A stretch of 64,000 nucleotides of DNA. Origin: Lama guanicoe. Taxonomy: Eukaryota. The position numbers and the translations under genes are program-made. Shown piece by piece: positions 307-57,630 of the stretch (positions within the stretch are counted from its first letter, which is position 1; each line of letters begins with the position of its first letter). The notes beneath the pieces were generated by a model. It had not been told where the DNA came from and did no database searches. It saw only the letters and a program-made list of their open reading frames with translations. Location: contig MU053557.1 of assembly GCA_013239625.1 (NCBI GenBank), positions 4,556,123 to 4,620,122 on the forward strand, in the 5' to 3' direction.

Positions 307-1817
307 CTGGAGGATATCAAATGAAAGATCATTTGTGAGAGTATAAGAAAGTTATAAGCAAGGATTGCAAGTTTTTGTCAAGTCGCCATTTCTTCTCCAG
401 GGCTGGTGGCCTGGAAGAATTTTAATTGTTATCAACATTGCCTTATTATTACTTAGTACTCAGATGTTATCAAAGAACAGTGACACATGCTCTCAATCCT
501 GCAGCAGCCTGGGTGTTCCCACTTTATTTAAAAAAAAATTCCCCCCCATAGGTCAGATTGAGTCCCATGGCTTAGTATACTGAAGGTGCTTGATATATGC
601 TGAACCTACAAGGTCATTATAGATCTGGCTACAGCAAGGTGGATAACAGAAGTACTGGAGCAGAGCAAGGGGCAGTGGAATCTTTAGGGAGATGGCTGGG
701 GCATGGTTGTAATGGCCCTGAAATGTATGATTGTCCCCAGACTGCCCTTCTGTCTGCCCAGTCCTGTGTGGGACTTCTTTCCTCCCCAGCTCTCCAAAAT
801 GTTCCCGTCTTTGCAGCTGTAAAACTGGAATGAAAAGGAGAGGAAAGAAGATCATGGCACAGACTAGGCTTAGGGAGGAGGCTATTTTGATGGCACAGAG
901 GTGAAAAAAGAAGACTGAAGCCATAAAGCACAAGGAAGTAGATATAAAAGAGTACAAGGGAATCTCACAAGTTATTCGTATGGAATATGGGCCTCCTTCA
1001 TGGTATCCTCAAAATACAACAAGAGGACTCAAGTTCTTAACCCATTACTTTCGGTTACTCTGTTGTTTTGAACACGCAACTGCTCAAGCACTCTACTATG
1101 GGGTCAGAATATTATGAGCATTACCTGATACTGGAAAGAGGGGTTTGGAATCTTGGCTCAAACACTATTTGTGAGTCATTCATCTAATTCACCCAACTTC
1201 TTCAACTGTAAAATGTTGATGGGTCAAAGTCAAGCAGACCTACTAGGTTTGCATTCTGGACCTGTGCTTCTGTTGATGCAGCCCTAAAATGATAAGGGAT
1301 GAAGTAATCACACTCCATCCAGTCACTGCTGATTAAAGCTGAACTCAAATCCTCGTATTGCTGCCAGGAGTCTGCCTCCTTCTGTCCCTATATACTGGGA
1401 TTTTGAGACCCAAGCTGTGGATCTTCCATTTCTTCATAGTGGAAACAGTTAGTACTTTTTGGCGGGTGATGAACAGGGAGAATGAAATAGATTTTGGCTT
1501 GAACAGGCTGAAGGAGAGGACCATCAGTTCACAGCTCTTCATCTAGTAAATCTTGTTAGGGGTCAGTGCTGAAAGCTAGCAGCTTAGCTGGAAAGCTGGC
1601 AGTAATGAGCTGTAGTCGACCAGGATCATTTTGTAGTTCTGCCCCCAGGAACCAAAGGTAACTGCAGCAGAAAGGCTCTGGCTTGGGAATCATGAGATAG
1701 GAGTCTAAGCACAAATCAGAGTCTCCCATACATTAGTTAAGTCACGTTCATCAAGATATTTCATCTATTTTTTGAGATTTCGCTGTTCCCAGTGATAAAT
1801 GAGGGCTTAATCTAAAT

Positions 1818-3013
1818 TAGTGCTTCTCAACCATGGCTGCCTATTCAAATCACCCAGATTGCTTTTTGAAAATATCAGTGCTTGGGCCTCATCTCCAGAA
1901 ATGCTGGTTTAAGTCGTTCGTACTGCACAGCCCAGTCACAGGCATTTTTTTTTCCCTTTATTTTAAGAGAGGTTTTGGGCCCCACCGCGGGGCGCGCGCA
2001 CCCCTCAGGCGAAGGTGAGGGGTTCTGCCTACATGGCAGGGGTGGTTACTGCACGCTTTGGAGGAGTGGAAGCTGGGGGAGTCCGGTACTTCAAAGCTCC
2101 CTCTCGGATGGCTAAAGAAGGAAGGCTTTCTCATCGAGGGCGAGTCGTCCCCCACCCCACCCTTCGGGCCCACGGAGGCATGTGAAGAGGTGCCACCTCC
2201 CGGCTGGGCGGGGTGGGGGCTGCGGCCTGGATAAGAGTGGCGCCAACGTGAGCGTTCGCGGTCAGCGCCGGGAAAAGCCTCCGCTCACTCAGGCTCGTCC
2301 GTTTGCCTCACGAGGGAGCTCGTCTGAAAAGTCTGACAGAGCCCCCGCTTCTCTTCGCCCAGCCCGCCACAGTCTCTCACACGCCCGCGTGCAAGCCCGG
2401 CGAAGGGGAGGGGGGCCAAGGCCGTCCCGCCCGGCGAGCCGTGACGGCGACCACGACGAGGCACCTGCCCCCCACCAGGCGGACAGGCGTGCCTCCCTTA
2501 CCGTCTCACCCCACTTCCCCCCCACCGAAGAGAGCTGCTCACGGGACGCACCACCGCAGTGGGGACGCGAGGGGCTCGCCAGGAACAGGAAAACGTCGCC
2601 ACCGCTCGGCCTCGGCACCGGGGGGACGACCTGGAGCGCTGCGGGCGCACCGCGGAGCGCCGAGCGAGACGCGCGCACGCACGACGGGGGGCACGCAGCG
2701 CCCGTGAGACGCGCCGAGACGCCCAGGCCAGAGTGCCCGCTGCGGCAGGCGACCCCCGCCCGGCCGGCACCTTGAGGCATGGGCGGGAGACCGAGGTCGG
2801 CTGGACTCCGCACCGCGGCCTCCCACACGCCACCAACGGGCGGGGAGGAGAGGCCAGGGGCCCGCAGACAGGAAGAGCGGCCCCTTTCGCCATGAACGTC
2901 TATCCCTCGTCCGACCCTGCGTAGGCCCCGCCCAGGAGAGCGCCTCGCCACATCTATACAGGTATTTTTCTCCAGTTCCCCAAATGATTCTTTGAGCCAG
3001 TTATTAAGAACCA
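1818..3013. mobile_element. MER5-like hAT-Charlie MITE split in two (1818-1949 and 2958-3013) by the ETS retrocopy
   Basis: tagtgcttctcaacc..aatcacccag..gggcctcatctccaga on the left continues as atttttctccagttccccaaatgattct..ttaagaacca on the right. Confidence 0.7.
1950..2957 (-). pseudogene. Retroposed pre-rRNA 5' ETS fragment (A'/01 motif to just past A0) with poly(A) remnant; forms an intronic CpG island
   Basis: Minus strand begins ATAGATGTGGCGAGGCGCTCTCCTGGGC...GACGTTCATGGCGAA...CCCCGCCCG..GGCGTGTGGGAGG..GGTGCGG..CCGACCTCG, collinear with recalled human 5'ETS from GATCGATGTGG. Near 2140-2075 it reads CCCTCGATGAGAAAGCCTTC..TAGCCATCCGAGAGG..GTACCGGA, like the A0 region. T-rich tail at 1950-1964 on plus. 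TSD ACAGG(C/T)ATTTTT at 1938-1949 and 2958-2969. Confidence 0.88.
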
Positions 3014-3739
3014 TACGTCTACATAAAGTTTTCAGACTTTAATGAGTGTATGAATCACCTGGGATTATTGATAAAATGCAGATTGTGCCTCAGCAGTTAA
3101 AAGCCTGAGTTTCTGGATTTCAGATGTGCTCCCAGGAGATGCTCTGGACCCAGGGTCACACTTGGAGTGGCAGCCTGATTCCCTCCTCTAGGACAAAGTT
3201 TGAAAACTGGTATACCAGAGGCCAGAGGCCACAGAAAACCCACGAACATTTTTTTTCTTTTTTTCCCCACAGAGTTAATTTTTAAAGTTTGAATTGCTCT
3301 ACATCATTTAGAAATCAGGGTGTTTTACATAACCCAGATGCTTGCCTTGGCTTTGAAAACTGGAAAAACTATTGCCTGGGGCCTTCATGCTCATCTGGCA
3401 ACAGTTATCTGGGACTGGGTGGTTGCTGCCATCTCTGTGGGGCATTTGTTCTCTGGTCATCACAGTCCCCAAACCGCCAGCTCACTCATTTACACCCAGC
3501 CCTGGCAAGCTTTGTGAGTTTATCCCTGTTGTAAGGATACATGAAAAGAGACAATGGCCTGAGGACCATGAGGGCCTCTGGCATTAGCCCACCTTGAAGA
3601 AGGAAGTCCAAGATGGTGACCTTGGTTTGGAGGAGAGGGCGGGATGCACAGCTCTTAAAGGGCATGTGAGGTTTAGAGCGGAAAATTGCAGAGTTTTTCA
3701 GAGTGTGATTTGTGGATAGTCTGCATTAGAATTATTTAG

Positions 3740-4550: not shown

Positions 4551-4962
4551 TTCATACACAATTCTGTAGGAATGATAGGTTCCCCTCCCAAAAAAAGATG
4601 AATTTTAAAATATTTCTGAAACCCTCCTCACTTAACTCTACCTGAGAATATCTAGGGGCAGAGTCAGGAGACATGCGTTCTTAACTAGCACCTTAGGGGT
4701 TTCTTATGTTCTCTACAGTATGAATCTCTGGAGTAGAACGAGCCAATGCACCAAATGCTTTGGGACCTATGAACCAGAAGACAGCTCCTTGGGAAACAAT
4801 AAGGAAATCTGGAAAAGCAGTGAGCTCTTAATAGTTGTGCAGGGATTTATAGTTTACAGAGCTCTTTTACACATGGAATTATATTTCAGCATGAAAGAAT
4901 TTGAAGACTTGAGCTGGGCTTTGAAAAAGAACCAGAGATCCCAACAAGAAACTATCACACAG

Positions 4963-6228
4963 GGGAGTGGCCAAGATGGTAGAGGAGGAAGACCCTAAGC
5001 GCACCTCCTCCCACAGGCACACTGAAATTACAGCTATTTACAGAGCAACTATTGATGAGGAAGGCCAGAAGACTAGCAGAAAAATCTTCCATAACTACAG
5101 ATATAAAGAAGCAGCAACAAAACGGGTGGACAAGTAGAAGAAGCAGAGACATAATATAGTCAAGTCCCACACTCCAAGGTGGACAACCCGCAGATGGGAG
5201 GATAATTACAATGGTGGAGGTTGTCCCCCAGGAGTGAGGGGTCCAGGCCCCACCTTTGTCTCCCCAGCCCAAGGGTCCTGGATCAGAAAGGCAAACCTCC
5301 AGAATATTTGGCCAGAAAATATAGCTCTGGTGACCAGAGGGGAGTGCACTGCTGGGATGCATAAAACATCTCCTGCAAAAGACCACTACTCCAAGGTCAG
5401 GAAACATAATGAACCTACCAAATATATCAATGGACAGATCATCTAGACAGAAAATCAATAAGGAAACACTAGCCTTAAGTGACACATTAGACAAGATGAA
5501 CATAATATATATAGAACATTCCATCTATTCCATACATATCCTTTTCAAGTGCACATGGAACATTCTCTAGGGTAAATCACATGCTGGGTCACAAAACAAG
5601 TCTCAGGAAATTTAATAAAATTGAAATCATATCAAGCATCTTTTCTGAACACCAAACTGTAAGATTAGAAATTAACTACAAGGGAAAAAACTACAAAGAG
5701 GACAAACATGTGGAGGCTAAATAATATGCTGCTAAACAACCAGTGGATCACTGAAAAAAATCAAAGAAGAAACTTAAAAAAAAAACAAACCTGGAGACAA
5801 ATGAAAACTAAAACACAATGATCCAAAATCTACTGGATACAGCAAAAGTAGTTCTAAGAGGCAGATTTATGATGGTACAAGCCTAACCTGAAAAACAGGA
5901 AAAATCACAAATAAACAACTAAACTTACAGCTAAAGGAACTAGAAAAAGAGGAACAAACAATAGAAACTAAGAGCTTGTTCTTTGGAAAAATAAATACAA
6001 ATGATTAACCTTTAGCCAGACTCATCAAGAAAAAAAGAGAGAGGACCCAAATCACAAGGGAAAAAAATTTTTTCCTTTTCTTTAACTTTGTGTCTGTAGA
6101 AAATGATGGATGTTCACTAAACCTATTGTGATAATCACTTCATGATGTATGGAAGTCAAGCCTTTATGCTATACACCTTAAAATTTTACAGTGCTAAATA
6201 TCAGTTATATCTCAATAAAACTGGAGGG
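4963..6228 (+). mobile_element. Internally deleted L1 (5'UTR + ORF2 endonuclease-region piece + 3' terminus) with degenerate 17-bp TSD
   Basis: Starts ggggagtggccaagatgg. ORF2-like tcaatggacagatcatctagacagaaaatc from ~5427. Ends ..ctcaataaaactgg. Flanks are aagaaactatcacacag (4946-4962) and aaaaagctatcatatag (6229-6245). Confidence 0.75.
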
Positions 6229-6317
6229 AAAAAGCTATCATATAGAATAAAAATAAATTACCTTCTGGAAGCTAGTTTCAGTTTTATTGTTATTATTGAT
6301 CAGAGAAAGTTACTACA

Positions 6318-6722
6318 TTCAATTAGAATGTTTTTTAATTTATTTAAAAACTGCCAAACTGCTTTCCAAAGTGACTGTACCATTTTGCATTCCTATCAGT
6401 AGTGTGTGGAAGTTCTACTTGTTTCACATCCTCATCAACACTTGATAGTATCATTCTTTTTCATTGTAGCCATTCTAGTAGGCACACAGTTTTAGCTCAT
6501 TGTTTCAATTTACATTTCCCTGGTAACTAGTGGTGTTGAGACTTCCTTCATTTGCTTATTTTCCATCCCTATATTTTCTGACTGAAAGTGTCTGTATTTT
6601 TTAATTGGGTTGTTTACCTTCTCATTACTGAGTTATAAGATTTTTTGTGTGTTCTTGATACAAGTATCAGATATATGGTTTACAGATATTACCCCCCATC
6701 TGTGGCTTCCTTTTTATTTTGT
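6318..6722 (-). mobile_element. Old L1 fragment, antisense
   Basis: aactgccaaactgctttccaaagtgactgtaccattttgcattcc.. is typical antisense L1 ORF2 3' sequence. Confidence 0.8.
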
Positions 6723-9286
6723 TGGTAGATTTATATGGGTGGTGGAAAAGCAGGATTACTGATAAAGAGATCAGCAGGATAGTGGTGAGTGAATTCTGCG
6801 TGCACATGAGCTGGCAGAGGACACACCGGAGAGGTGGGTGATCATGGAGCTAAAATTGTTAAATGTAGTAGAATCAGGATAGGGAGAGCATTTTAAGGAA
6901 GGTGGAGGAATTTAGAATGGATATAGCAAGGAATAGGGAGCCATGAAACACTCCTGAGCATGAGAGTGGCAAAACAAAAGTGGAAATTCTACCTCAGGTA
7001 GCACAGGAAGCACAGGGAGAGGCAAGGAGGAGAGGCAAGGAGGCCAGGTGGAAAACTAAATGGCAGTCAAGGGGTATGAGTGTGAGAATGTGGACTGTGA
7101 TCTTGACAAATGTGAAGTCAGGGAATAAAGTGAATGACACTGTATTTTAACGTAAGAAAAGGGAAGATCTTTTGGCATATTGAATATGAGAGTTAAAAAT
7201 GAGGAGAGCAAATCATTATAGAAAATGAATATTAGAAGGGAATAAGAAGGTCATTGAGTTCCACTCTTAATTTTACTGTTGAGAAACTAAGGCCCAGAGA
7301 GGAGTGGTGATTTTACCAGGGTCAAACAGCAATTTAGCAACAGAGTCAGAGGCCATCCAAATCACTGGATGCAGACCTTGTTGTTTCCACTTCAGAAACC
7401 TAACCTCAGAACTCTGAGGTCTAGGTCTCCAACTGGGAAATATTTCACTCACAGAAACTTGCTGGAAATGAGGATTCACCCCCATTTCTCCTCTCTCAGT
7501 CTCTCTTTGATCCTTCCCATCCACCACCACTCCCATCTTTAAGAAGAAAACTAACCAATAAACATTTCCCTGCATGTTTTTTTTTCCTCCACCCGCAGTT
7601 TTCTTCTTTGACCAGACAAGTATACCACCGGCAGTTTTTATATTGTAAACCCATATTGTCTTTGTTGAGACAGATGCCAAATTAGAACTACAGCTATAGC
7701 TACGTGAATATATCTTAGACCATAATGATGAACCAAAGAAAAAACAACTTGCATAATGACATCATTTTAAATTTAAAAATCATCAAAATAAATTCTTTGC
7801 AATGATTATAAGCACACAGACATATAATCAAAGCACAAAACCACCATGAATGTGATTAATTTGGAAGAGGGAGAGAATGGAATGAGACTGGGAAAAATTA
7901 CCAGGGGACCCTAAATGTATCTGTAATGTTTTATTTTTCCAAAAAGTAAAAGAAAGGAATAAAGAAATTCTGAAGATAATATGACATAAAGTAGAATTTT
8001 GCATATTCTAATATTCTCTATTATCAGTATGTTCAAAATGCCTCACATGTTTTTAAAAGTTCAAATGTGAAGCATTGTTTACTTGTGTCAGCATTCATTA
8101 CCCACCCCCATCTCCTATAATTATGCTGATGGTTCATATTTACCAAAAATGTTGAAAGTTACAAACACCAGGGATCAATGTAGCTAAGTGTATCGCTCCT
8201 ACATCCTCTGTTTAAGGATGTAGGTCTGCCAGGTTTCTTCAAGATAGTTTTAAAAGATAAGGGGGCAATGCTAGAAGCTTCTAGACCAACAAATCTTGGC
8301 ATGACTTGCTCTATGATCCTAAATGAACATCTGTAGTTTAACAGTGGCAAGAATCTCCAGGCGCCCAGAAGTCAGAGATGAGGGCAGTTACCTGAAACCC
8401 ACCCCTACCCACGGGCAATAGGAAGGTTTATGTGAGCAAGTGAGAAACGTCACGGAAACAGATGCTGCAGGCAGAGTCTATGTATGCAAACGCAGCACAC
8501 CAAGAGGGCATCAGGGACAACGTTTGTCGTTGTGACACAGTATGGTCAACCAGCTGGGCAGCGGTCCAGGGCTCAGTGTGGTCAAGAGCCTTCTCCTTCC
8601 CTGCCTCCCTAACCCCTGAGGACTGTTGGTCCTCACTGTTGACTCCTACTGAAACAGACACAATGGCAGAAGCAGCCTAAGAAATGGGTACAGACTCCTA
8701 CTCTGGTGGAGTCGGGATTTAGAAAGAAGGGATGTGGGGTGGTCCCTATTAGCTAACAATAAAACAGCCCACAATTACTGAGGGACTGTCCAAAGCTAGA
8801 GGCACTGCTAAATCCAAGAGATGAATGATCTGATTTCGTCTTCACAAAAGGTCCATGTGATAGATACTGGCTCACATGGATCACCATTAGGTCCAGTTTC
8901 CAGACTGGAAAACTGAGGTTCGAAGAATAAAAGAGACTTGCCTAAAGTCACGCAATCATTAGGTGACTCCAGGATGTGTCTTATACTTTGTTCCATTTCT
9001 CTAGGATACATAGGAGAACCTAGAAGGGGATGTTTATAACAACTGGCCTCAGACCTACAATACCCATATCACCCTTCCTAGGGAAACGCCCTGACAAGTA
9101 GGGAAAACAGTTGGGAGACAGCATGAAAAACCTCAACAGAAATGAGTATCAGGCTGACTCTTGGTGAAAAAAATGAATACAGGATGCCAAACAATTCAAT
9201 GGCAGGAGTCTAGTGAAACAACAAAATAATTGGCAGATAGTGTCATAAGGACTTTGAGAATGCTTTCTTCAGAGTTGGTTAGCCGT

Positions 9287-35800: not shown

Positions 35801-37105
35801 GAGTTAAACCCAACCGAGTAATAATTACATTAAATGAAAATGGCCTAAACTCTCCATTTAAGGGGGAGGATATAGCTCAGTGGTAGAGCACATGCTTAGC
35901 ATGTACGAGGTCCTGGGTTCAATCCCCAGTACCGCCATTAAATGAATAAATGAATAAGTGAATGAATGAATAAATAAATAAATAAATAAAACTAATCACC
36001 CTCATTTAAAATTCAGAGATTGCCTGATTGAAGAAAGGAACCTAGATACATAAATATAAAGACATAACTAGGATAGAAGTAAAAGGATGAAAAAGGAAAT
36101 GCTATTTAAATATCAAAGGAAAGTTGGCATGCCTGTAGTACCATCAGTTCAGTAAGCTTCAGAGCAAGGAATATAACCAGGAATAAATAGGGATACTTCC
36201 TAATAATAAAGGAGTTAATTCATTAAAAAGACATACAATATTAGAAGTGTGTGCAGCTAACAGCACAGCTTAAAATACACGAGGCAATAAGTAACAAAAC
36301 TGAAAGAACTAGAAAACAATCTACCATTTTAGTTGGATATTTCAGCAGTTCTCTTTCAGTAATTAATAGAACATTAGACCAGAAAAAAAAAATCAGTAAG
36401 GATACAGAAGACTTGAACAACGCTTTTAATCAACTTGACCTAGTTGAATTTTATATAACAATGCCCTCCCCCAATCAAAATAGACGTTCCTTTCAAATGC
36501 ATGTGAAACATTCACCAAGAAAGTACATATTCTGGGACAAAAAAACAAATATCAAGTTACTTGAAGGATTGAAAGCATACGAGTAGGTTCTCTGAAGACA
36601 GAGGAATTAAATTAGAAATTAATCAAAGAGATGTACCTGGAAAATCCCCGAATATGTGCAAATTAAATAGAACACTCCTAAATAACTCAGGGGATGTAGG
36701 AGAAATCATGAAGGAAACTAGAAAATAGTCCGAATGTAATACAACCTGTCAAAATTTGGGAATGCAACAAAAGCAGTGCTTTAGAAAGGGAACTTTATAA
36801 CATTAGGTGCTTATATGAGAAGAAAAGAAAGTCTCAAATCAATTACCTAAGCAAGTCAAATTAAGCAAAAAGTAAGGAGAAGGAAGAAAGAAAATAGTAC
36901 AAGTAAGAGCAGAAATCAAATAGAAGTTGAACAAATAAATAGATGTTAACTAAACTTACTGCGATGATCATTTCACAATATATGTAAGTCAAATAGTTGT
37001 GCTGTGCACAGACTTATACAGCATTGTGTGTCCATTTTATCTCAGTAAAACTGGGGCAAAATAGAGAATATCAACAAAACCAAAGAACTATTTCTTTGGA
37101 AAAAC
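32890..37105. mobile_element. Nested L1 cluster (antisense ~32.9-35.7 kb, sense ~35.75-37.1 kb) with small LTR-like pieces
   Basis: Minus ORFs RMFTAGLFIIAKTWKQPGCPS and KWREILCSCIGRFNSVKMSVL; plus ORF KKKISKDTEDLNNAFNQLDL. Confidence 0.85.
35862..36002 (+). mobile_element. Camelid Vic-1-like tRNA-derived SINE
   Basis: ggggaggatatagctcagtggtagagcacatgcttagcatgtacgaggtcctgggttcaatcccc carries A and B boxes, then (TAAA)n. Flanked by catttaa on both sides. Confidence 0.85.
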
Positions 37106-56530: not shown

Positions 56531-57000
56531 TAACAGTCTCATGGGGAAGAGAGATGATAAACAACTGTAACAAATGAATCAGTGATAAGGGGTACGAAGG
56601 GGGAGGTAGGGACAGAAGTTAAGTCTTCTTAACCCCTAATGTCTCACCCACTTGTCCAGCCGCCACCTTCCACACTTGAGGAAGATGACGCAGACGGCAC
56701 TGATCTGCTCAAGACCAGACTACACCCATCTGTTTCCAAGCAGGATTAGAAGCTAACACTGTCTTCCTGCAACGCCAATCCTTTCTTCACAGCCCCTCCC
56801 GATGACGTGTCTATTTTCCTATCATTGTTTAGCTTTTAGAACCCAGTACTCAGGGAGGGGAAACAGCGCTCAGGCATCCCCTTGCTGGCCCCAGGACGCA
56901 AGGGCCCCATCCATCCCCCTTCACTCCCCAGGACCCAGGGAGAAACCCCGGCGGGGCGGGGCCTGGATACGCACCGGCGCGTCCACCAGGTGGCAGCAGC
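56531..57000 (+). promoter_or_regulatory. ABLIM3: ABLIM3 promoter: CRE-like TGACG half-sites, CCAAT, GC boxes, CTCF motif at 56983-56997
   Basis: CpG-rich region with ggggcgggg boxes at ~56950-56961, directly upstream of exon 1. Confidence 0.75.
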
Positions 57001-57171
57001 GAGCGGCCGCGCCCCCCGCGCAGCCACGCCGCGAGCCCGCATCATGGATGTCGAGCTCTCCTATTTCGCTTCGCTCGCCTTGGAATTCGAGACCCCAGAA
57101 GAGGACCAGGATTCATGAGCCGGTCGCAGGGGCCCGGACTGGGGCCTCTGGCTCCCGACACTGGCCGAGAG
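57000..57171 (+). other. ABLIM3: ABLIM3 5'UTR exon 1 (start approximate), containing uORFs
   Basis: Inside the CpG island; strong donor GAG|gtgagt at 57171/57172; next acceptor ccctttcaccctctag at 57543. Confidence 0.75.
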
Positions 57172-57630
57172 GTGAGTCCTGGGGCGGGCCGCTGCTCGCG
57201 GCAGCCGGGCGGGGACGCGCTGCCCAGCTGAGCCGGGCGCCCCGCGCGTTGCCCCCGCCCTGCCTCCCTGTGGTCCACACCCCCTTTGGGCTCCCGAGCT
57301 GCTGGGCTGCAACAGTCGGGGGTGTGCGCGAGCAGGCGCTGCCAGCCTGGCTTCTGCCGGGCAGTCAGGTTCCAGGAGCTGGAGGACCTAGGCGCCCGTA
57401 TCCTCTCTGCCTCCGCCTCCCTCCTGCTCTCACCTGCGCCAATTAGTCTACTCGCCTTCAAGGCCAGTGGCTACAGCCAAGACGGAGAGGGGACAGCACC
57501 TGAGGATACAGAGCTAGCATTGGACTGCCCTTTCACCCTCTAGGTGATGAGTGAGGTCGGAAGATCTGAAGATTTAAAAAGCAACGGGAGCCTACGTATT
57601 GAATGAAAGATCCAGTGCGAAGGCATCACC

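Follow-up and report, generated by a model that had tools for sequence, protein, structure and literature searches.

A probable LINE-1-type processed retrocopy of a 5' external transcribed spacer by-product of pre-ribosomal RNA in Lama guanicoe

Retrocopies made by the LINE-1 (L1) machinery are known for mRNAs (i.e. processed pseudogenes) and for small nuclear and other non-coding RNAs. The present analysis concerns a GC-rich insert in a 64,000-nucleotide (nt) stretch of Lama guanicoe DNA (contig MU053557.1, positions 4,556,123 to 4,620,122; hereafter the window), which is very probably an L1-type processed retrocopy of the 01/A'-A0 by-product of pre-ribosomal RNA (pre-rRNA), i.e. the 5'ETS (5' external transcribed spacer) piece released by cleavage at the A'/01 and A0 sites. 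On sequence comparison, this genome appears to contain at least six retrocopies of pre-rRNA that start at A', the window copy among them. As in other L1 processed retrocopies, the copies are collinear with an RNA but not with the DNA around its gene, end in an A tail, are associated with candidate duplications (having a clear A-rich start in two copies), occupy dispersed, unrelated sites and exhibit no evident self-mobilisation. They differ in that the template would be no gene product but a short-lived, excised nucleolar spacer by-product of RNA polymerase I transcripts and in that the tail would stem from surveillance oligoadenylation and not from mRNA polyadenylation. The mechanism is ordinary for processed pseudogenes; the template is unusual.

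The by-product has been described as a living RNA in human cells. The 5' ends of all 22 clones obtained by circularised-RNA reverse-transcription PCR were intact and lay at 415, 416 or 419-422 (one at 424), and their 3' ends were spread over 1534-1634 (PMC6239190). In that study, a full-length fragment extending to 1643 was never seen, a probe for 1622-1639 gave no signal and a probe for 1582-1601 gave a weak one. The A'-A0 fragment was reported to be unaffected by Xrn2 and dependent on the exosome, with the conserved sequence just downstream of A' being protein-bound and anchoring U3 (PMC3061060), and to accumulate on knock-down of RRP6 or MTR4 (PMC3964915). A conserved 11-nt motif has been placed 5 nt downstream of the processing site (preprint 10.1101/2021.06.09.447752), a spacing which fits the upstream member of the 01/A' doublet. 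In mouse, adenylated 5'ETS RNAs end specifically at A0 (+/-2), with almost none at A' and none at site 1 (PMC4057207). At the DNA level, degraded sequence resembling ribosomal DNA (rDNA) has been reported at many non-rDNA human sites (PMC5381670).

Each of these systems resembles the copies described here in part. The human by-product (PMC6239190) shares with them a 5' side that is intact at the doublet and a heterogeneous 3' side that falls short of A0, whereas the former is an RNA in cultured human cells and the latter are old germ-line DNA copies in another mammal. Only the fragment ending on the A0 side is found adenylated in mouse (PMC4057207) and, in agreement with this, only A'-A0 was found retrocopied here. 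The rDNA-like pseudogenes (PMC5381670) are likewise derived from rDNA, lie at non-rDNA loci and decay free of concerted evolution; they are, however, degraded near-full units including the intergenic spacer (IGS) that give a low-level rDNA-like signal, in contrast to copies with RNA-defined ends, tails and duplications. The text of that paper contains none of the terms 'retrotranspos', 'polyadenyl' and 'target site'. No description of ETS retrocopies was found in the literature searched, with most subscription journals being outside reach, and an older report is possible.

Composition along the window set the insert apart, with a GC content of 0.62-0.80 over ~1950-2960 and of ~0.4 in the flanks. 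The outer bounds of the feature (i.e. 1938..2969) coincide exactly with the outer edges of the two flanking repeats, and the features within and around these bounds are listed in Table 1. This direct repeat abuts both ends of the insert and begins AAAAAT when read on the insert strand. On the minus strand, the insert begins with ATA-GATGTGG at 2957, continues to ...CCTCTCTT at 1965 and passes into AAAATAAAGGGAAAA (1964-1950), which is followed by the AAAAA that opens the repeat. An initial annotation of this DNA, made from the letters alone, had reported a GC-rich insert of ~1 kb with a poly(A) remnant, a 12-bp target-site duplication containing one mismatch and no 18S sequence, and all four of these observations were reproduced.

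Table 1. Positions of the window features and of the human oligonucleotides in the reference rDNA unit (L013).
Feature	Sequence	Position	Strand	Remarks
Target-site duplication, tail side	window	1938..1949		ACAGGCATTTTT on + strand; 11/12 identical to 2958-2969
A-rich 3' tail	window	1950..1964	-	RNA sense AAAATAAAGGGAAAA; boundary with the A5 of the duplication ambiguous
Retrocopy body, 993 nt, from pre-rRNA 5'ETS	window	1965..2957	-	L013 ~1752-2856; human ~421-1606
Copy 5' end: ATA then GATGTGG, start of conserved block downstream of A'/01	window	2948..2957	-	GATGTGG = L013 1755
Target-site duplication, insert 5' side	window	2958..2969		ACAGGTATTTTT on + strand; 11/12
Conserved block TTCTTTAGCCATCCGAGAGG	window	2100..2119	-	human 1409-1428, >200 nt upstream of A0
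Left part of interspersed repeat split by insertion	window	1815..1937		one paralogue (C5752)
Right part of split repeat	window	2970..3035		from sequence reading and flank comparison
Probe hA'	L013	1803-1834		human 472-502; 6 errors
Probe a	L013	2678-2697		human 1409-1428; 0 errors
Probe d	L013	2832-2851		human 1582-1601; 3 errors
Probe e	L013	2872-2889		human 1622-1639; 1 error

The integrity of the assembly was examined using contigs assembled from sequencing runs, with one run being aligned for each of four organisms (i.e. X1, X2, X5 and X6). The interval 1700-3200 was covered by a single contig in runs X1, X5 and X6 and by three overlapping contigs in X2, all four runs differing from the window by 2-5 letters. 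Contigs from the four organisms span both junctions, so the insert is no product of misassembly. In 14 DNA runs from 6 studies and the 4 organisms, a fraction of at least 0.83 of the words sampled from this interval was present; RNA runs X15-X20 contained 0.07-0.21 of them. The copies of the four organisms are near-identical here and hence give no depth of age. One difference, at position 1960, falls inside the retrocopy tail: the assembly has A on the plus strand and the contigs of 4/4 runs have T, giving a tail of A8 GGG A4 without the interrupting T. This difference reflects an assembly error or else a variant private to the assembled individual. An AATAAA poly(A)-signal reading of the tail was dropped, as the T on which it depended is private to the assembly.

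The source of the insert was sought in a 2.05-Gb assembly in which the window lies on a 6.4-Mb contig (C1176). A search with the insert matched three short contigs and several places on large ones. The rDNA unit used as reference, L013, is a complete unit from one of these contigs and contains pRNA at 1120-1205, 18S at 4770-6638, 5.8S at 8328-8480 and 28S from 9758. Transcription would start at ~1253, as predicted from a GCTGACACGG box, which we take to match the start-site consensus. The insert is collinear with L013 1755-2842, inside the 5'ETS (BLAST E 5e-67), and in a local alignment 747 columns were identical, 177 were mismatched and 218 had gaps (identity of 81% when only aligned bases are counted). 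The alignment to L013 included no sequence from upstream of A', from downstream of A0 or from 18S. Two further rDNA units, L014 (contig C9248) and L015 (C3535), differed by 7-9% from the C658 unit within A'-A0 and exhibited much weaker 18S matches (1169 and 1197 bits versus 1688); they are probably degenerate units that escaped from homogenisation, or poorly assembled ones.

These data bear on whether the insert could have been moved as DNA, through capture during break repair or through segmental duplication out of a nucleolar organiser, or placed by an assembly error. The degraded rDNA-like DNA at many human non-rDNA sites (PMC5381670) and the degenerate units on C9248 and C3535 count in favour of this. 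The DNA in which the window copy lies is unrelated and single-copy. The window copy, however, has no promoter, leader, IGS or 18S sequence attached, and homology beyond the duplications was looked for in the flanks of all copies (600 nt on each side for the window) without any match to the 10-kb rDNA unit. The discrete ends coincide with RNA processing positions, an untemplated tail and a target-site duplication are present, and contigs of four organisms cross both junctions. DNA-level transfer or an artefact is considered extremely improbable.

Positions of the cleavage sites were transferred from human by placing oligonucleotides with known human rDNA positions (PMC6239190, supplementary table) in L013 by script (Table 1); probes b, c and hA0 had no credible placement in L013. 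Spacing between probes d and e is equal in human and L013, so that copy ends at L013 2856 and 2859 correspond to human ~1606 and ~1609 and an end at 2826 to ~1576. Human A0, reported at G1642/1643 (PMC13201660, Table 1), falls at L013 ~2892/2893, and the window copy stops 33-37 nt upstream. Two proposals in the same table (i.e. C1609-U1627 and C1671^C1672, in 45SN1 numbering) were not convertible to the probe numbering and were not used as support. On the 5' side, L013 1751-1753 would be human 420-422 provided that the 52 nt before probe hA' contain no indel, and the reported G420 and U422 agree with the motif. The spacing of the A' doublet and probe hA' in human is one that we assume here. 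As regards the span of the copy, the initial annotation had followed the 5'ETS from A'/01 through A0 and ~145 nt beyond. Collinearity from A'/01 was borne out, but the far end was overestimated: the block TTCTTTAGCCATCCGAGAGG taken as the A0 motif is probe a and hence lies well short of A0. An end ~35 nt short of A0, in the trimming zone of the human by-product, fits a decay intermediate better than that first description did.

Comparison with another mammal was provided by five metagenome contigs (L017-L021) containing rDNA promoter and 5'ETS sequence from a single other species, which were found via a 23-base L013 stretch, are 99.3-99.7% alike and presumably represent host DNA in metagenome samples. 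This outgroup rDNA has GATCGATGTGG where the genome's own rDNA has GACCGATGTGG.

Sibling copies were searched for with plain DNA queries, from which shorter or 5'-truncated copies may have escaped. Four queries (i.e. the insert, the rDNA segment, the C7321 copy and the C4216 copy) returned the same closed set, consisting of 3 rDNA contigs and the dispersed loci C1176 (the window), C6145, C5895, C4216, C7321 and C6774 (partial), i.e. five copies in addition to that in the window. Copy C6774 covers L013 ~1771-2290 and then gives way to unrelated DNA; without a defined 5' end, it was excluded from the end counts. The 5' ends of the other copies lie at L013 1750 (C6145), 1751 (C7321), 1752 (window and C4216) and 1752/1753 (C5895). 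All five thus fall within 4 nt, at the human equivalent of ~419-422 (i.e. the 01/A' doublet) and 2-5 nt ahead of GATGTGG, the first bases of a block conserved between the own rDNA and that of the other mammal.

The 3' ends are for the most part shared. Both the window copy and C5895 end at L013 2856 (...CTCTT(T) then A's), C4216 ends at 2859 (...CTCTTTGCC then A15) and C6145 ends at ~2826 followed by a 50-nt A/T-rich tail; three ends are therefore within 4 nt (human ~1606-1609) and the fourth is at ~1576. Taken together, the ends of the copies agree with those of the human clones, at ~419-422 on the 5' side and at ~1576-1609, inside 1534-1634, on the 3' side (PMC6239190). Downstream of the copy end, the own rDNA reads GCTGCTCTTTGCCTGC and the other mammal's (L020) reads GCTGCTCTTTTGCCTAATG; both are G/C-rich and lack an A-run, indicating that the A's of the tails are untemplated and were not copied from a genomic A-run. 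For the window copy and C5895, the A's after TTT are also untemplated because C4216 retains the GCC which follows TTT in both rDNAs.

These ends were also considered in terms of reverse transcription that began inside a long pre-rRNA, through internal priming or a template switch, in which case the 3' end would be a priming artefact and only the 5' end would be real. Copy C7321 has the same start but continues through the rest of the ETS into an A-rich 18S tract, GACGAAAAATAACAATA (L013 ~5285-5300), followed by more A's; it is a copy of an A'-cleaved precursor that was internally primed, so internal priming on such precursors is possible. At the site in question, however, there is no A-run to prime on (own rDNA CTCTTTGCCTGC, other mammal CTCTTTTGCCTAATG), three independent copies end within 4 nt with untemplated A's (A15 in C4216), and these ends lie inside the in vivo 3' range of the human by-product (PMC6239190). 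A priming artefact at the 3' end is hence regarded as highly unlikely.

Integration features were compared across the copies. Candidate duplications abut the junctions in 5/5 copies, and three of these are each better than chance, with matches equalled or beaten in 33 (window), 40 (C6145) and 51 (C4216) of 2000 shuffles; for the window, 30-40-nt flanks were used and position at the junction was not required. The duplications of the window copy and C4216 begin AAAAA in the RNA sense, as in an L1 endonuclease target. Flanks of the copies are mutually unrelated apart from a 70% match, in opposite orientation, of C5895 (5' flank) with C4216 (3' flank). This shared stretch we take to be L1, because the flanks of C4216 presumably are L1 sequence.

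Shared ends could also reflect descent, with one founder ETS retrocopy having become a small retroposon family. This was addressed using trees of all 10 rows, in which C6774 fills less than half of the columns. The all-column tree unites the copies in a weakly supported clade (89/93, branch 0.037), which would fit a master copy, and both the window copy and C5895 have a tail of AAAATAAA following CTCTT(T). Such a clade is explained by parallel CpG decay, however, and in a maximum-likelihood tree of non-CpG columns it dissolves into an unresolved star, with end branches of 0.13-0.20 for the copies and a stem of 0.089 for the present rDNA. The T in the window tail is private to the assembly (4/4 runs differ at 1960), the 3' ends differ (2826, 2856 and 2859) and no promoter is evident that would start transcripts at the first base of a copy. 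Copy C7321, extending from A' across the entire ETS and into 18S, did not descend from a 1-kb master, which could not have supplied its ~1.9 kb of further ETS. Descent from a master copy is accordingly judged very improbable.

Kimura distances at non-CpG columns were 0.22 between the window copy and the own rDNA, 0.32 between the window copy and the other mammal, 0.28 between the two rDNAs and 0.24-0.37 among the copies. The copies share with the outgroup several states that the present rDNA has lost, e.g. a block deleted from the present rDNA. From these comparisons it is concluded that the insertions were apparently independent and that their templates would represent an older version of the rDNA. 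Mammalian neutral rates are 1-2.2 x 10^-9 per site per year, and as a rough inference from the end branches the copies would be tens of millions of years old, an estimate that is inflated by alignment error in GC-rich sequence.

An L1-type processed retrocopy of an A-tailed 5'ETS fragment beginning at A'/01, as originally suggested, therefore remains the favoured explanation, given the five 5' ends within 4 nt, the untemplated tails and the unrelated sites of insertion. The accompanying idea of a fossil recording both the cleavage position and an older ETS sequence is upheld by the shared 5' ends and by the outgroup states absent from the present rDNA. In the proposed sequence of events, cleavage at A'/01 and A0 would release the 5'ETS piece that serves as template, and 3'-5' decay would trim this RNA from A0. 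The nucleolar surveillance machinery (TRAMP/PAPD5-type) would then add an oligo(A) tail to the trimmed RNA, which would let the L1 reverse transcriptase prime on it at a T-rich nick (i.e. target-primed reverse transcription). Binding of the 5' end by proteins and U3, which spares it from Xrn2, may explain why the copies are full length at the 5' side.

Several observations weigh against this explanation. The all-column clade described above is one. Adenylated ends in mouse lie at A0 +/-2 (PMC4057207), whereas the copies end ~35 nt upstream of the human-equivalent A0. The ends and tails of the template RNA are deduced here from the DNA copies. Transfer of coordinates relied on four oligonucleotides with no indels assumed and a 52-nt gap at the 5' side, the sites themselves having been transferred from human. 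The candidate duplications of C5895 (423/2000) and C7321 (346/2000) are weak and not above chance, and the L1 endonuclease target is less clear in the three copies other than the window copy and C4216. The uninterrupted A-run is short (4-9 A) and is preceded by A4TA3GGG in the window or by A8GGG in the four runs. Detection bias may also contribute to the apparent preference for one segment, since the slowly evolving blocks of A'-A0 make old copies of it easier to find with present-day rDNA than those of spacers that evolve faster. Finally, the CpG observed/expected ratio of the insert (see below) is unexpected for an old neutral insertion.

The preference for A'-A0 was evaluated by searching the same assembly with other L013 segments as controls, using the same tool. 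The A0-site 1 segment (1877 nt) matched C7321 only, the first internal transcribed spacer (ITS1; 1689 nt) gave matches of 47-155 nt only and ITS2 (1277 nt) matches of 65-278 nt only. The 5'-A' segment (498 nt) gave two matches of 150-190 nt at 85-86%, on C7365 and C4396. Long, old and dispersed copies thus appear to occur for A'-A0 alone in this search. As the ETS tail of C7321 demonstrates, the segment that follows A'-A0 remains detectable in old copies, at least patchily. The two 5'-A' matches (C7365:15121-15307 and C4396:83155-83306) correspond to the first ~190 nt of the 5'ETS and may be spacer-promoter duplicates or further rDNA fragments. A 70-nt match at C1972:6749090-6749159 is 99% identical to ITS1 (query 423-492) and is far too similar to be old.

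Because the human fragment is so short-lived, its ends have been mapped only recently and in perturbed cells, and the agreement of six genomic fossils with them would mark these ends as conserved in the pathway rather than as artefacts of a cell line. The copies retain older 5'ETS sequence that is otherwise unrecoverable because rDNA copies are homogenised, and they indicate that RNAs tagged for exosome decay can serve as L1 templates. Tentatively, such copies could form a recurrent and undescribed class of mammalian processed pseudogene, in which a surveillance-tailed nucleolar RNA reaches germ-line L1; members would record the ends of decay intermediates together with ancestral spacers, and their methylation-resistant 1-kb CpG islands may seed orphan promoters or regulatory elements. 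We hold this broader proposal with less than even confidence.

The CpG content of the insert was determined. Its 993 nt have a GC content of 0.705 and a CpG observed/expected ratio of 0.88 (109 CpG), as compared to ratios of 0.10-0.16 in the flanks, 0.25 in the whole window and 0.64-0.98 in the siblings (L004, L006, L008, L016 and L011). By the usual CpG-island thresholds (>=500 nt, GC >=0.55 and observed/expected >=0.6) the insert is an island, and the 64 kb contain just one other stretch of this kind. Both rDNAs have 43 CpGs in common; the window copy keeps 22 of the 38 that it covers and 41 of 56 shared GpCs. CpG decay has thus been little faster than in the GpC control, indicating far less decay than in methylated DNA. 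On the simplest reading of this composition, the copy was already a CpG island when it inserted and would have been largely unmethylated in the germ line since. Retention of CpG density also offers a natural experiment on whether CpG-dense DNA sets up and keeps an unmethylated state anywhere. The second island-like stretch, at ~56600-57600 (GC 0.59-0.72, observed/expected 0.62-0.76 in 500-nt windows), is possibly a promoter.

The insert appears to split an interspersed repeat, which the initial annotation took for MER5-like (i.e. resembling a hAT-type DNA transposon). Comparison of the flanks with the other sequences of this analysis gave no match. In a genome search, the C5752 paralogue matched ~1817-1897 of the window at 80%, i.e. 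the left half alone, and a terminal-inverted-repeat-like match between the left and right parts was weak (score 10). Just past the split element, a second interspersed-repeat-like stretch was observed at 3040-3180, presumably a DNA transposon remnant of the same kind. Elsewhere in the window, a tRNA-Ala (anticodon AGC) was called at 35866-35937 (+) by both Rfam (44.1 bits) and ARAGORN.

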